Below are positions 31,686 to 36,399 of a stretch of DNA of 64,000 nucleotides, in pieces; position 1 is the stretch's first letter, and each line of letters begins with the position of its first letter. Both the position numbers and the translations under genes were made by a program. The stretch is from Nitrosopumilaceae archaeon (GTDB taxonomy: Archaea; Thermoproteota; Nitrososphaeria; Nitrososphaerales; Nitrosopumilaceae). The DNA lies in the NCBI GenBank assembly GCA_965214835.1, contig CBDCCK010000002.1, positions 1,792,001 through 1,856,000 on the forward strand, read 5' to 3'. Under the pieces are notes generated by a model. It saw only the letters and a program-made list of their open reading frames with translations. It did not search any database and had not been told where the DNA came from.

Positions 31686-32007
31686 GTTGGGTCGTGCAAG
31701 ACTGACGTATTTGCCAGCCCTTTTGCGCCAGACCCACACACCCTTGTTTCCAGTGGCATACACGAGACCAGTGCATCTGATCCTGACCGACTTCACCATC
31801 GGACAAGGGGCGAGCTACTTTTTGGATTATAGATCCTTGGTGCAGGCTTTACAGCGGCAACTGCCTTGAAATCGCCCAATCGCTAAAACCCGATGACGGT
31901 ACTTTGAGGAGTCACTGTCAGAGCAGGCACTGCAATACCATCCTTGAACGATTGACCAAAATCCTGCATTCTGTAATCTAATATACCAAACAAACCCAAA
32001 AAATGAC

Positions 32008-32095
32008 GTTGGCGTTGGCAAGCCCACCGAGCTGATGCCTCGGCGAGTGGCCCCTACACGGGCCGTTCATGCGGGTTCAACTCCCGTCGCCAACG
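32008..32095 (+). tRNA. Degenerate copy of the non-canonical tRNA(GAU) with long variable arm
   Basis: Same stems as 34707-34801 but a 7-nt deletion in the D arm. Confidence 0.55.
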
Positions 32096-32103
32096 CTATA
32101 ATC

Positions 32104-33737
32104 GTATGTGGTCACCTACCCCTAGATTATTTTGGCCACCTCATCCATGATGGACTTGCCCTGCAGCTTCCATGTCGACACGCATGTATTGAGCCATCCA
32201 TGCCTTTCCGTCCAGACCAGGCCGCCCTTGATCTGGCCGTTTATCTTGAATTGAAGTACGACGGGGCGCAGTGCCCGCTCTGCACCATTGTTGGTCGGCT
32301 CGACACCCTCGTATTCCAGAAACGCAAACATGCACGGCAGGGCCCTGTGCATCCTCTTGAGAAGGGGCTCCAGCGGGCCGCCCCACGCACCAACGTATCC
32401 GAACAGCATGTTCTGCATGTTGGTCTCAAACCGCCGGCGCAGCTCCGGCGAGTGCCGCCCCATCAGTCCGCCGGCACTGCTTATCCCCGTCCTCTCCTCG
32501 AGCTCCCGGAGATCCTCCCCGGACAGCTTGTCCCAGCCCTCAAGACACTCCCTGGCATCCTTGAACAGCTGCTGCATCTGCCGGTACAGGACTCCTGCAA
32601 ACAGCAGGGCACCCTTTTTCTGCGAGCCATACAGGAGGAACCGCAGCTCGTGCGCCCAGCACCGCTGGAGCCTTCCCAGCAGCCCGAACCTCTTGTATGC
32701 GGGATATCCGTCCGATGTGACGACGCCCCCGTACCCGCCCATGTACTGGTCCAGGATCCGGGCGCTCCTGGTGTCTGCATATATCATGAACACGCCCACC
32801 GCCGACAGCATGGCCCACGCCCATCCCAGCCTGCCTGCCAGGTTGATCCCCGTCTCGTCTATGCAGACCGTCTTTGAGCTTCTTACCTCCTCTGCGATGG
32901 CCTCGGCAGGCGCCTTTGCGGCGTCGCAGACGCGTCCTATGCTGTTGATTGCAGTTGACTTTGACATGTGCACGCCCAGGATATCTGACATTATACCCGG
33001 GATCCTGTTGTGTGGGACGCCCTCACTGCGCAGCTTTGTGACGGCTGTGACCACGCTCGTGTCATAGCTGCCGCGTCGGGGCAGGCCGTCGGGGGCAGTA
33101 TGCATGGTGCCGCATTTCGGGCACACTGCCCTCTGTGTCTCGTGGCGCGTCTCGGTGTACTTTATCTTGAATCCTATCATGTCGCGCACCTGCGGCTTTT
33201 TCATGATCTCTGTGGTGGTGCCGCACTTGCACTCCGGCGCCCGTCCACCCGGAAAGCAGTGTTTCTGTACCCTGGGGGCCGGTGGGTGCGCGATACGCCC
33301 TTGTGGCCCTTCTGGCCGCCGGGCTTTTTTCTGTCCTCCCCGGTGCCGTCATCCCCAGCTGCAGCATCGGGCCGGGCCCTCTCCTTTCTCCTCTGCGCCT
33401 TTTGCCTCTTCCACTCCAGCGAGTCTGCCGACGGGGGCGAGTTCTCGTTCTCGTAGTACCGGAGCCGGTTGTCCTGCTCCCTGATGGTCTTGTCGCGCTT
33501 TTCAAGTGTCTTGTTTAGCCTTTCAATGGTCCTGCCCTGCTCCTCAATGATATTGTCACGCTCCTTGAGGTCCTTTTTTAGATTCCTTATCGTCTCCGTG
33601 GGCGATGCTGTAGATGCCTTGATCTCGTAGCATGCGGAGAGCTGACCTTTCACAATGCCTAGTCTACGCGATCATAGTATAAGGATCAGCACCGTCAGTA
33701 ATGTTTACCCTATTGTGAGGGGTAGGTGACCTCATAC
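32104..33737 (-). mobile_element. IS66-like element, frameshifted transposase
   Basis: Ends gtatgtggtcacctaccc / gggtaggtgacctcatac; ENSPPS, KPGGQKGH, IDETG, VTSDGY, QRCWAH, PTNNGAERALR. Confidence 0.88.
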
Positions 33738-34078
33738 GAACCCTACATTGCGAAGCTCCTTGATCTGCATTGCAGAGAGAAATGCGTACTTTTGCAGCCT
33801 GGTCATGCCCTCAACATAGTCATGCATTCCGATCAGAAATGCAGGAAGTTCCGAACACTCAATCATGCGCGACACCCGATCCCATACCCGTATGTTCCTC
33901 CACGGCTGAATTAAATGGTTTCATCTGGATTATCCGTCCCTTCATAACCAAGTATTGTAAGACTGCGGGGTATTTATTGCCGTTTTTCATCCTGTCTTCG
34001 CAGATGTAACCCGGCTCGTGGCCGTGCTGACGGTGACGTGCGGATCTACCTGCAGTCCAGACCGCGCTTTAAATCCGC

Positions 34079-34501
34079 ATGAAGAACTTCAAAGCACTGA
34101 TGATCGAGATACTGCTGTCAATTGCAGGGGGAATCATAGTTGTCATAATAGTGGATGTCGCTCGTGCAGCAATCAGGAAAATAAAAAGAGGCGGGGAGAT
34201 ATCCGATCTCCGAAGGTCTTTCAAGCAAATTAAGGTGCGCATAAAGCCTGTTCCGGGTGACAGTGGCAAGCTGTTTGGGAATAACGAATGGTTTGAACGC
34301 TTCCAGTCTGAGCTGCAGGGTGTCATAGTAGAGGTGACGCATTCTGAGAATCTAAGAACCGATCAACATCGAAAGTTGGTGCGCATGATAGACAAGAGGC
34401 TGTACGTGCTTGAGAATTTTCCATATGACCGGCCACCGGCGGAAGTCTATGGACAATTCTTTGCAGACCTGAAAGGACTCCGGTGGCTGGGCCTGGAATA
34501 G
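34079..34501 (+). CDS. Hypothetical protein with N-terminal TM anchor
   Basis: Hydrophobic ILLSIAGGIIVVIIV followed by soluble domain; TTTAAA upstream. Confidence 0.6.
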   Translation: MKNFKALMIEILLSIAGGIIVVIIVDVARAAIRKIKRGGEISDLRRSFKQIKVRIKPVPGDSGKLFGNNEWFERFQSELQGVIVEVTHSENLRTDQHRKLVRMIDKRLYVLENFPYDRPPAEVYGQFFADLKGLRWLGLE

Positions 34502-34706
34502 TGCCGCGTGCGGCGGTTCTGCATGTCATGTTCGTGATGCGTCAGGTTACATCCCGCTCACGGGTTCAGACGGCATTGCAGCCGAGAAAACCCGTACAGC
34601 CCGGACGGCGTTGAGTCTGTCAGTCCGTACTACAATGCCGTCCCTTAACTGTTCCCCGAAATCCCACTTTTGTAATCTAATATACAATGCAGGCCCAAAA
34701 AATGAC

Positions 34707-34801
34707 GTTGGCGTTGGGCATTGGCAAGCCCACCGAGCTGATACCTCGGCGAGTGGCCCCGAGACGGGCCGTTCATGCGGGTTCAACTCCCGTCGCCAAC
34801 G
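34707..34801 (+). tRNA. Non-canonical tRNA-like gene, anticodon GAT, long (9-bp) variable arm
   Basis: Acceptor GTTGGCG/CGCCAAC; D arm GGGC-ATTGGCAA-GCCC; anticodon arm CCGAG-CTGATAC-CTCGG; V arm GAGTGGCCC-CGAGAC-GGGCCGTTC; T arm GCGGG-TTCAACT-CCCGT; discriminator G. Confidence 0.75.
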
Positions 34802-34848
34802 CTATAATCTATCCAGACATTCTATAAAAAAGTAGGGATCTGACAGTT

Positions 34849-36347
34849 GTACGAGGTCACGTTCCTAAACCAGTTTCATGACCTCGTCTGCTACGGATCT
34901 GCCCCTTGCCCTCCATGTCAGTATGCACGTCATAAACCACGACCACCTCCTCATCCAGAGTTCCCCTCCCTTGATCTGCCCGCTTATCTTGCGGAAGACG
35001 ACGGCGTAACGGAGGGCACGCTCTGCGGCGTTGTTTGTGGGATGCACGTTGTCGTGCTCCAGGAACGTAAACAGGTGCGGCAGCGAGCTTGTCAGTCTGC
35101 GCAGTACCGGGCCCAGGACGGGGTCGTCCGTGCTTTCCCGGTACCCGAACAGTATGTTGCGCAGCCAGGACTCGAACCTTCTGCGCAGATCCTTGCCCCT
35201 GTCCTTCCTCCTTGCCCTGACGGCGCTGCGGTACAGCTGCCGAAGCTGCTCGTACAGTATTCCCGCAAACAGCGGGGCGCCCTGCTTTTGCGCCGCGTAT
35301 TTTGATACGCGCAGCTCGTGCGACCAGCACAGCTGGTGTCTGTCCTCCCCGTTGAACCTGTCATACACCGAATATTTGTCAGATGTCACTATTCTGCCAT
35401 ACTTGTCCATGTGCCTGTCCAGGAACAGTGCGCCCCTGCTCGTATTGTACTTGACAAACACGCCGTTGTCCGTCTCGGCAGTCCATGTCCATATGCGACT
35501 GCCGTTCATGTTGGCCGCAGTCTCGTCTATTCTGACGTTGGATGATCTCTTGATGCCGCCCAGGATCGCGCCTGACGGCTTTTGCATAGAGTCGCATACC
35601 CCTCCGATCATGTTGATTACGGTAGATTTGGCGATGCTCCTGCCGGTAAAATCCTTGAGCGTGTCTGCCACGGACTGCAGCGGCATGTGCCTTGCGCGCA
35701 AGGCAGACACAAGGGAGATCATGTGCTTGCCGTACCTGCCCCTCCTTGGGAGTCCGTCGTCTGCTGATATCATAATGCCGCACAGTCTGCATGTGGCACG
35801 CTCGGTTATGTGTCGCGTCTCTGTCATCCGGACCGGTTCAAAGTCGATGATGTTCCGTATCAGGGCAGTTATGTCCATGGCCCTCCCGCACATGCACACC
35901 GGCGAGCACGTCCCGTCGTTGTCCTGGAACGTGTGAAGCACCGTCTTCTGGGGGTCGTGTCTTCTGGATGTCCCCTTGTGGCCCCTCTGGCCTCCCGGCT
36001 TTTTGCCGGTGCCACTGTTGCTACCGTTGCCACGGTTACTGGCCCTCTCCCTTTTCCGCTGCGCCTTTTGCCTCTTGTACTCTAGTGATTCTGCAGACGG
36101 TGGCGAGTTCTCGTTCTCGTAGTACCGGAGCCGCCTGCCTTGCTCCTCGATTATCCTGTTCGCTGCCTTTTGGTTATTTTCTAGCGTGCTTATTCTGTCT
36201 GTGAATGATACAATTGTGGCCTCTAGTTCGCGGTATGTGGGTCGACGGCCTTTCATGTTGATGCTATACAGGCATCGTATTTGATCAGCATGATCGCAAT
36301 ATGTTAAGCAGGTTGTCAAAACACGTCAAAACTAGGTGACCTCGTAC
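34849..36347 (-). mobile_element. Intact single-ORF IS66-like element
   Basis: TIR gtacgaggtcac, 8-bp TSD TGACAGTT (34841-34848 / 36348-36355). Confidence 0.92.
34865..36259 (-). CDS. IS66 family transposase
   Basis: Uninterrupted ORF with ENSPPS, zinc ribbon, IDET, TSDKY, LCWSHE, PTNNAAERALR. Confidence 0.92.
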   Translation of the reverse strand, partial: NMKGRRPTYRELEATIVSFTDRISTLENNQKAANRIIEEQGRRLRYYENENSPPSAESLEYKRQKAQRKRERASNRGNGSNSGTGKKPGGQRGHKGTSRRHDPQKTVLHTFQDNDGTCSPVCMCGRAMDITALIRNIIDFEPVRMTETRHITERATCRLCGIMISADDGLPRRGRYGKHMISLVSALRARHMPLQSVADTLKDFTGRSIAKSTVINMIGGVCDSMQKPSGAILGGIKRSSNVRIDETAANMNGSRIWTWTAETDNGVFVKYNTSRGALFLDRHMDKYGRIVTSDKYSVYDRFNGEDRHQLCWSHELRVSKYAAQKQGAPLFAGILYEQLRQLYRSAVRARRKDRGKDLRRRFESWLRNILFGYRESTDDPVLGPVLRRLTSSLPHLFTFLEHDNVHPTNNAAERALRYAVVFRKISGQIKGGELWMRRWSWFMTCILTWRARGRSVADEVMKLV

Positions 36348-36399
36348 TGACAGTTTACAGCTGACACCGGATGCTGCCGCATCCCTGCGCGGCATATCG

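Follow-up and report, generated by a model that had tools for sequence, protein, structure and literature searches.

Which role can be filled by a tRNA that joins an extended variable arm (V arm) to an isoleucine anticodon? The question is raised by a 64,000-nucleotide stretch of the genome of a Nitrosopumilaceae archaeon (GenBank assembly GCA_965214835.1, contig CBDCCK010000002.1, positions 1,792,001 to 1,856,000 of the forward strand; called the window below), which holds such a gene at window positions 34707-34801 (copy A). The first-pass annotation of the window had noted the gene as a tRNA of mismatched identity, and the observation is confirmed: the gene is genuine and well conserved, and combines a lengthy extra arm with the anticodon of isoleucine. 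Its family, found in ammonia-oxidising archaea, has a body held by selection and an anticodon that varies, so that copy A may put in a wrong amino acid or have a role outside translation. The reading that we put forward, plausible though short of probable on the sequence evidence, is that of a tRNA under selection that probably carries serine despite its mismatched anticodon, and so corresponds in Archaea to the allo-tRNAs and nev-tRNAs.

The tRNA gene at 34707-34801

The gene and its flanks comprise the following features, the parts of the cloverleaf lying exactly where they had been annotated at first.

34707-34801, plus strand: copy A tRNA gene, intact, 95 nt, class-II-shaped, with a 7/5 acceptor/T branch and no encoded CCA
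34707-34713 and 34794-34800, plus strand: acceptor stem of 7 bp, GTTGGCG/CGCCAAC
34716-34731, plus strand: D arm, with a 4-bp stem (GGGC/GCCC) and the loop ATTGGCAA
34740-34742, plus strand: anticodon GAT, within the loop CTGATAC on a 5-bp stem, followed by A37
34751-34759 and 34766-34774, plus strand: V arm of 9 bp, including 2 G-U pairs, with the 6-nt loop CGAGAC
34777-34793, plus strand: T arm, with a 5-bp stem and the loop TTCAACT
34801, plus strand: discriminator base, G73
34673-34684, plus strand: TATA-like box taatctaatata, a putative promoter, 23-34 nt (-34 to -23) before the mature 5' end
34802-34848, plus strand: 3' flank of the cassette, with the A-rich box ctataaaaaag at 34822-34832, broken by an insertion sequence (IS) at 34848/34849

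The D loop has 8 nt. A single unpaired C lies between the anticodon stem and the V stem, two unpaired bases lie between the V stem and the T stem, and the variable region totals 27 nt. C34706 is able to pair with G34801; however, this eighth acceptor pair (-1:73) was dropped as a distinguishing feature, since a complementary base at -1 is found in the canonical tRNA genes here as well.

Several lines of evidence, together with the covariation described below, identify copy A as a genuine gene for a class-II-shaped tRNA with an isoleucine anticodon and G73. ARAGORN reports tRNA-Ile(gat) at 34707-34802. In a search of 3.3 kb, the gene scores 48.1 bits (E 1.8e-8) on the Rfam tRNA model RF00005, whose gathering score is 29. 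The minimum-energy fold is exactly the cloverleaf (-46.9 kcal/mol, z = -3.1), and none of 200 shuffled sequences folds as well. On the covariance model built from the family (R1, see below) the gene scores 118 bits. The contigs of four sequencing runs show only paralogue variants at the locus (A37G and a 7-nt D-arm deletion). When the whole window (1-64000) was run against Rfam in gathering mode no match was returned, whereas both of its tRNA genes of this kind pass in the 3.3-kb search; the blank is a filter miss rather than a true negative, and long variable regions seem to slip through the speed filters.

The upstream box, annotated at first as an AT-rich element about 25 nt before the gene, is kept in all six copies of the family in the genome, and A/T boxes stand at the same distance upstream of the canonical tRNA genes. 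It probably acts as a promoter. Complementarity of the 3' trailer to the anticodon was also considered; 4-nt matches occur in copies A and E, none in copy D or in the copies of another genus, and they were judged to be due to chance.

A family of six cassettes

Copies were found by running ARAGORN on the window and then by searching the whole genome (3.22 Mb, 52.6% G+C, 2 contigs); the contig that carries them is called C2. There are six paralogous cassettes of about 235 bp each, with the anticodons GAU (three copies), GAA (one) and CAG (two).

Copy A, window 34707-34801, plus strand: GAU, A37, intact
Copy B, window 32008-32095, plus strand: GAU, G37, with a 7-nt deletion that takes out the D stem; probably defective
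Copy B TATA-like box, window 31974-31985, plus strand: same motif at the same distance
Copy C, C2:182875-182968: GAU, G37, with the same deletion as copy B
Copy D, C2:1090321, complement: GAA, intact
Copy E, C2:2887467, complement: CAG, intact
Copy F, C2:914323: CAG, diverged, with a short V arm

Copy B lies 2.7 kb upstream of copy A and shares its upstream box and the first 8 bases of its trailer. ARAGORN calls it at 32008-32096 with the anticodon put at position 27, and it scores 30.6 bits on the Rfam tRNA model. The unit that the copies have in common extends from about -80 to about +47, the remaining flanks being unrelated; in copy A it is about 12 nt longer once the IS is read out. A conserved 3' flank is common to copies A, C, D, E and F. 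Across the family each copy is a cassette of about 200-235 bp, in which a putative TATA-like promoter precedes a serine-like body and a brief conserved stretch follows on the 3' side.

The genome also has a canonical class I tRNA-Ile(GAU) gene at C2:1373051-1373128, with a 5-nt variable loop and A73, as well as canonical genes for tRNA-Phe(GAA) and tRNA-Leu(CAG, UAG, GAG). The family is therefore redundant for decoding. The trailer of one canonical gene, tRNA-Leu(CAG) at C2:1091389-1091473, opens with ctataatc, the 8 bases that also open the trailers of copies A, B and F; this gene lies about 1 kb from copy D.

Relatives in other genomes

BLAST in 60 relatives gave one match, in a genome of the same genus that is 76% complete (G002). 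The gene there is identical to copy A at 95 of 95 positions, and the flanks differ at 5 of 87 bases. The contig that carries it (C104, locus L002) is a mosaic when compared with C2:182711-189252: the cassette core matches copy A at 97%, the upstream part matches copies C and B at 85%, and a downstream stretch of 1.4 kb is 99.9% like the region 5 kb past copy C. Either cassette replacement by gene conversion or an assembly mis-join would account for the mosaic.

Covariance model R1, built from the six genome copies, was run on 151 genomes of Nitrosopumilaceae. It found the family in another genus, with four copies in G096 and seven in G113 (56-77 bits), both genomes being 3.7-3.9 Mb. The anticodons of these 11 copies are AAG (2), CAG (2), UAG (3), GAG (2) and GAU (2). 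In most other genomes with a match, the match was canonical tRNA-Ser(GCU) alone, at about 38 bits, and the best matches outside Nitrosopumilaceae were tRNA-Ser too, at 44-47 bits. The family thus comprises at least 17 copies in three species, with the leucine-type NAG as the commonest anticodons. From the gene sequences, the anticodon has diversified into NAG, which would read the Leu CUN codons, GAU for Ile, and GAA for Phe. A tree made to see whether the GAU copies go back to one origin gave no resolved branching within the other genus. As far as these genomes and the literature considered below go, this is a lineage-restricted, multi-copy family of class II tRNA genes in Nitrosopumilaceae that appears to be previously undescribed.

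The cassettes of the other genus are about 190-200 bp long. A TATA-like box lies upstream of them, and the trailer forms a hairpin with CTTATAAAAC after it, which resembles the A-rich box in the 3' flank of copy A. They are flanked by housekeeping genes (thymidylate kinase, TrpA and ThrRS, AlaRS, Nop56, AdoHcy hydrolase), and the loci differ between the two species: the TrpA-ThrRS spacer of G096 spans 1.24 kb and contains two copies, that of G113 measures about 92 bp and contains no copy.

In wider searches, the exact pattern of anticodon stem plus V arm had one match among genome contigs, in a contig of a Nitrosopumilaceae metagenome-assembled genome, and none in metagenome contigs or viral contigs. 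Blastn against phages and plasmids gave no match. A degenerate D-arm/T-arm pattern found nothing in viral contigs and 10 metagenome contigs (L062-L071), all of the 7/5 class II type, with G73 in nine and U73 in one, and with the anticodons UAU (seven, four of them identical sequences), UAC, CGA and UGA. These score 55-68 bits on R1. Some belong to closely packed tRNA arrays, have their CCA encoded, and are bacterial in appearance. As they were picked with a pattern taken from R1, they are a lead rather than proof of common descent.

Covariation and selection

The covariation alignment has 16 sequences, namely 15 family members and one canonical tRNA-Leu that entered at 29 bits. It was fitted to the model and is biased toward the model's structure; slid controls and a plain reading of the sequences agree with the result. 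Standard pairs fill 98.2% of the 451 pair cells, and double changes are found in 21 of the 30 pairs (8/9 in the V arm, 5/7 in the acceptor stem and 4/5 in the anticodon stem). None of 500 column shuffles reaches any of the five measures used, and slid partners are paired at 35-54%. The changes can be read directly between the genera: the acceptor stem GTTGGCG/CGCCAAC corresponds to GGCGACG/CGTCGCC, and the V stem GAGTGGCCC/GGGCCGTTC to GGCRCTTG/CAAGYGCC. Compensatory changes in homologues, which had been set in advance as a test of the annotation, are thus present in all five helices, the V arm included.

Selection is seen most directly among the intact copies A, D and E, where the body (positions outside the two loops) can be compared with the flanks and with the anticodon loop.

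Copies A and D: body 2/82 different; flanks 61/136 (Fisher p = 3e-13); anticodon loop 2/7
Copies A and E: body 1/82; flanks 24/129 (p = 4e-5); anticodon loop 3/7 (p = 0.0012 against the body)
Copies D and E: body 1/82; flanks 61/135; anticodon loop 4/7

The flanks have diverged by 19-45%. With the body frozen and both flanks and anticodon diverged, neutral decay is ruled out for these three copies. Gene conversion could hold the bodies alike, but would wipe out anticodon differences too; the anticodons have been kept distinct either way. This evidence is unusually clean, the body being frozen, the flanks scrambled and the anticodon hypervariable, and the RNA is almost certainly functional.

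The variation within the anticodon is itself patterned. Among the 15 members, position 34 carries 1.89 bits (G6/C4/U3/A2) and is the top unpaired column, level with the V loop. A35 is invariant (15/15), and position 36 is G in 11, U in three and A in one. Elsewhere, the cloverleaf carries the full set of signature bases of the T and D loops, and U54, U55, C56, A58, G18 and A14 are invariant in all 15. The anticodon pattern is that expected of decoders, and would represent CUN-box isoacceptors with offshoots by change of position 36 (GAG to GAU and GAG to GAA).

Amino acid identity

The first-pass annotation had questioned the isoleucine identity of copy A, and the body bears this out, pointing to serine rather than to leucine or isoleucine by the identity elements given in the available text of PMC9976931. 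There, the strong determinants of archaeal seryl-tRNA synthetase (SerRS) are G73 and then G30-C40; leucine identity requires A73 and a large variable region; and G73 of Haloferax volcanii tRNA-Ser is an antideterminant for leucyl-tRNA synthetase (LeuRS). Copy A has G73 and a long variable arm, as tRNA-Ser does. G73 is present in 14 of the 15 members, the remaining one having U, whereas A73 is present in all nine canonical tRNA-Leu genes aligned from the three genomes. With tRNA-Ile copy A shares the anticodon GAU, and neither the class I body with its 4-5 nt variable loop nor A73. Selenocysteine tRNA differs in its branch (9/4 in archaea, against 7/5 here), D stem (6-7 bp against 4 bp) and anticodon (UCA against GAU).

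The finer architecture agrees. The 4-bp D stem and the 2-nt 3' junction of the V arm are those of tRNA-Ser of this genome, while its tRNA-Leu has 3 bp and 3 nt. When a Ser model built from 11 canonical genes and a Leu model built from nine were compared, the Ser model won in all 15 members (31-46 against 20-36 bits). The best canonical matches of R1 are also tRNA-Ser. The body is serine-like on the grounds of G73, the long arm and the 4-bp D stem.

Other class II genes with G73 and a GAU or GAA anticodon occur in G033, G069, G098, G130, G132 and G168, and have A35 there too. Several of them, including those of G168 and G069, are clearly serine-like by model score (Ser against Leu: 74.8 and 73.4 against 49.5 and 48.2 bits in G168; 63.8 against 37.8 in G069). 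We read their anticodons as probable single changes at position 35 from serine anticodons, GCU to GAU and GGA to GAA.

Insertion sequences and neighbouring genes

The surroundings of copies A and B in the window include the following features.

34849-36347, minus strand: IS66-family IS, with the transposase open reading frame (ORF) at 34865-36319 (Pfam DDE_Tnp_IS66, E 2.6e-35)
34841-34848 and 36348-36355: 8-bp target duplication TGACAGTT flanking the IS after copy A
32104-33740, minus strand: second IS66-family element, with an ORF at 32122-33204 (Pfam DDE_Tnp_IS66, E 1.2e-29)
34079-34501, plus strand: small ORF of 140 aa upstream of copy A, with an N-terminal hydrophobic helix and no Pfam match

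The IS after copy A has the inverted ends GTACGAGGTCAC... and is inserted 47 nt past the tRNA gene. Once it is removed the sequence runs on as it does after copy C, which makes it an ordinary later (secondary) insertion. Sixteen ends of this IS type are present in the genome. The second element begins 8 nt after copy B and is without target duplication; the 3' flank of copy B was therefore lost in a rearrangement. For the two IS types over the whole genome, 3 of 33 ends follow a class-II-shaped tRNA-like gene at a distance of no more than 50 nt, where about 0.006 would be expected by chance. The genes concerned are copies A and B and an unrelated one at C2:702318; a fourth end lies 213 nt after copy F. 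The proximity could reflect either target preference or tolerated insertion.

The small ORF (126-142 aa from stop to stop) stops some 205 nt short of the tRNA gene, and only loci A and E have it. Being conserved upstream of copy E alone, it is a neighbour that lies outside the cassette. Pfam searches of the genes beside seven loci of this genus and nine of the other genus found no toxin-antitoxin, nuclease or defence gene; in this genome the neighbours are IS transposases, in the other genus they are housekeeping genes. No conserved gene was found downstream of the copies. The ORFs of the window have ordinary Pfam matches under table 11, and no altered code was noticed. The accessory-island setting first proposed for the gene holds in part: the stretch here is rich in IS, but no island surrounds the copies of the other genus, which have housekeeping genes around them. 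Another scattered sequence, a repeat of about 95 nt that is 78-95% identical among more than 25 places on C2 and also occurs on the reverse strand of L002 (1195-1291), looks like a miniature mobile element.

Proposed and alternative roles

If the family consists of serylated, mismatched tRNAs, the cassette would be transcribed from its own promoter, and the transcript would be processed and receive CCA as any tRNA does. Charging would be by the single SerRS, which is blind to anticodons, while G73 would repel LeuRS. Copy A would then read AUC and AUU at a low level as an Ile-to-Ser missense tRNA, with whatever benefit or toxicity such ribosomal use may bring.

Several observations weigh against this scheme. 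Serine at Ile, Leu or Phe codons should be harmful. The second SerRS determinant, G30-C40, is absent, the copies of this genome having A30-U40 and those of the other genus U30-A40, and a serine anticodon (NGA or GCU) is found in none of the 17 copies. Canonical tRNA-Leu itself scores 61.8 bits on the Ser model, where the family gets 31-46, so that the body, although serine-like, is remote from both canonical classes, tRNA-Ser included. Searches with Seryl_tRNA_N gave one match in each of five genomes, and thus no second or dedicated SerRS in these. The copies of the other genus have A8 in place of the near-universal U8, and the NAG copies have A37 after G36, whereas G37 is found in all canonical tRNA-Leu genes aligned from the same three genomes. 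The distribution is patchy, with the family present in 4 of the 151 genomes, and 5 of the 17 copies look damaged: the D stem is missing from B and C, and the defects of three G113 copies are a deletion in the T stem, a V arm that is shortened, or C33 together with an acceptor mismatch.

It is possible, if somewhat doubtful, that the family is instead a selected tRNA-shaped RNA without a decoding role. As such it might serve as decoy or competitor towards enzymes whose targets are A35-bearing anticodon loops (anticodon nucleases of toxin-antitoxin or defence systems, or modification enzymes), might be a regulatory RNA, or might be an element tied to mobile DNA. A selected body with a fast-changing anticodon loop is what an arms race would be expected to produce, and A35 is invariant in the 15 members and present also in the class II G73 genes with GAU or GAA of five further genomes. 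The family is multi-copy, patchy and confined to large genomes of 3.2-3.9 Mb; IS ends stand beside such genes far above chance; and A8 and A37 are atypical for working decoders. Most allo-tRNA(UAU) species are described as inactive in translation and as lying near toxin-antitoxin systems or transposons (PMC5389517, in the text available). However, no toxin-antitoxin, nuclease or defence gene adjoins the 7 + 9 loci by Pfam, the neighbouring genes are not conserved, and free variation at position 34 with positions 35-36 held is what isoacceptors of a four-codon box show.

Less likely than either is an odd-bodied but faithful isoacceptor, in which GAU would be read by isoleucyl-tRNA synthetase, NAG by LeuRS and GAA by phenylalanyl-tRNA synthetase (PheRS), providing ordinary extra decoding capacity. 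The anticodons, which comprise all four NAG as well as GAU and GAA, make a coherent set, several class I synthetases and PheRS have A35 among their strong determinants according to the available text of PMC9976931, and the normal reading of the window ORFs gives no sign of an altered code. Against this, the family has G73 in place of the A73 listed in the same source for archaeal Leu and Phe identity, where G73 blocks LeuRS of H. volcanii. One near-identical body would moreover have to serve three synthetases, and the canonical tRNA-Ile(GAU), tRNA-Phe(GAA) and tRNA-Leu(CAG, UAG, GAG) leave no gap to fill.

Functionless tRNA pseudogenes, spread by recombination or mobile elements as a decaying repeat through an IS-ridden genome, are about as improbable or slightly more so, and are disfavoured for copies A, D and E. 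Such a history would suit copies B and C, which have one D-arm deletion at two loci, as well as the sharp cassette borders, the mosaic of copy A core and copy C flanks in the sister-genome contig, the IS elements adjoining copies A, B and F, and the shifting loci of the other genus, where the two-copy locus of G096 is an empty spacer of about 92 bp in G113. It does not suit flanks diverged by 19-45% around bodies that differ at 1-2 of 82 positions, nor five helices all held by compensatory changes between genera. Gene conversion alone would homogenise the anticodon loop, yet the loop is the most divergent part.

Finally, an ordinary tRNA-Ile(GAU) whose V arm is a spliced-out bulge-helix-bulge (BHB) intron is very improbable, even though thaumarchaeal tRNA genes are known for such introns (PMC8450103, from the available text) and this genome has one in a non-canonical position in the variable region, because the V arm of copy A is an unbroken 9-bp helix without 3-nt bulges, is kept by covariation in relatives with different arm sequences, and would leave, if removed, a G73 still wrong for tRNA-Ile in a genome that already has the canonical gene. 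The intron-bearing gene, tRNA-Val(CAC) at C2:2048552-2048647 (minus strand), served as positive control in a BHB scan. Its clean intron is 20 nt long; the motif has 4 bp in the central helix and 2 and 4 bp in the flanking ones, and removal of the intron leaves a 76-nt tRNA with the variable loop AGGUC. In copy A, the best of the cuts that would yield 74-76 nt offer 1 bp in each flanking helix. No BHB is thus present at the V-arm borders, and the arm is no intron artefact, a possibility that the first-pass annotation had raised against itself. ARAGORN draws the tRNA-Val(CAC) intron as a long arm.

Other unusual tRNA genes and implications

Two further groups of odd tRNA genes are present in the genome. 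The second family on C2 has four members outside the window, at 66616-66687 (minus strand), 2234423-2234494, 2756709-2756780 and 3019690-3019761 (L110-L113), each of 72 nt and scoring 59-62 bits on the Rfam tRNA model. Their acceptor is of the alanine type (G3:U70, A73), positions 31 and 39 are mismatched, and ARAGORN gives the anticodons as AAG, GAA, AAG and GAG. About 55 nt upstream of each, after a small hairpin, is a same-strand copy of its own anticodon arm, and the upstream and internal arms co-vary locus by locus. Fragments with only the upstream part occur at three more loci in the genome, with a fourth, distant match at C2:2749116-2749275. Relatives of this family are present in G002 and G036.

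The third group is class-II-shaped with G73, and comprises C2:381278-381363 (minus strand) with UAU, 2806142-2806226 with GAA, and 702318-702406 with a 6-nt loop holding GAA. In two of the three, a gene follows 40-50 nt on for a protein with apparent SWIM-like and IS1-like zinc-finger/helix-turn-helix motifs; this gene has 14 tblastn matches in the genome. The remaining one is adjoined by the same IS66 element as copy A.

We would suggest, as a tentative and rather unlikely generalisation, that symbiont-type large-genome Nitrosopumilaceae keep, under selection, promoter-bearing serine-charged cassettes that read Leu, Ile and Phe codons, with a second family charged with alanine through G3:U70. 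If so, this would be natural, maintained missense decoding in Archaea, amounting either to deliberate proteome ambiguity or to the selfish spread of 'toxic tRNA' cassettes. The convergence of three unrelated tRNA bodies in one genome on A35 anticodons would then point to a common selective logic. In practice, annotation pipelines will name these genes tRNA-Ile, tRNA-Leu or tRNA-Phe, and will probably be wrong. Because the evidence for selection is clean, the family offers a tractable system for asking whether missense tRNAs are kept on purpose and, if they do not decode, what their role is.

Comparison with known systems

Canonical archaeal tRNA-Ser, the best-scoring canonical class for R1, shares with the family G73, the long arm, the 4-bp D stem and the two unpaired bases past the V stem. 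The family differs in a V stem of 8-9 bp rather than 4 bp, in having no serine anticodon and in lacking G30-C40. In the CUG-Ser yeasts, a tRNA-Ser(CAG) of serine type with G73 carries an anticodon of the Leu CUN box, and the codon has been reassigned genome-wide. The NAG anticodons in copies E and F and in 9 of the 11 copies of the other genus are alike in this respect. Unlike in those yeasts, canonical tRNA-Leu(CAG, UAG, GAG) persist here and nothing suggests reassignment.

A search of the literature on allo-tRNAs and nev-tRNAs and on thaumarchaeal and archaeal class II tRNAs, as far as the sources were available in part, found no archaeal anticodon-mismatched case, and the available text of a 2014 review gives nev-tRNAs in its table as the sole tRNAs of such a kind, in nematodes only (PMC4033280). 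Nev-tRNAs join a class II body to a class I anticodon, Ile UAU or Gly CCC (PMC3333845, Hamashima et al., 2012, from the text available), and are described as lowly expressed and as targeting rare codons (PMC3333845, PMC4033280). In body and anticodon class, in being multi-copy and in being lineage-restricted the present family resembles them; however, nev-tRNAs are eukaryotic and leucine-charged, are without a G73 serine-type body, and have other anticodon sets.

The allo-tRNAs are bacterial, from Acidobacteria, Clostridia and Proteobacteria, and are defined by a 12-bp branch divided 8/4 or 9/3 and by a D stem that is long and capped by a tetraloop, similar to tRNA-Sec (PMC5389517, Mukai et al., 2017, from the text available). 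According to the same text, those with G73, a long arm and Leu anticodons put serine at Leu codons in Escherichia coli (PMC5389517). None of the three D-arm strings looked for was found in the supplement of that paper. Allo-tRNAs and the archaeal family have in common a long V arm, G73 (or U73), mostly non-serine anticodons including those for Leu and Ile, some degenerate copies, and ties to transposable elements. The family differs by its 7/5 branch, both stems of which covary, its 4-bp D stem with an 8-nt loop, its archaeal host, and the absence of toxin-antitoxin genes nearby. Without the branch and D stem of allo-tRNAs, and not being bacterial, it is not one of them, and nev-tRNAs are eukaryotic and leucine-charged; the family would thus work like both while being a member of neither. 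To the anticodon-mismatched class II tRNAs known from bacteria and nematodes, it would add an archaeal family.

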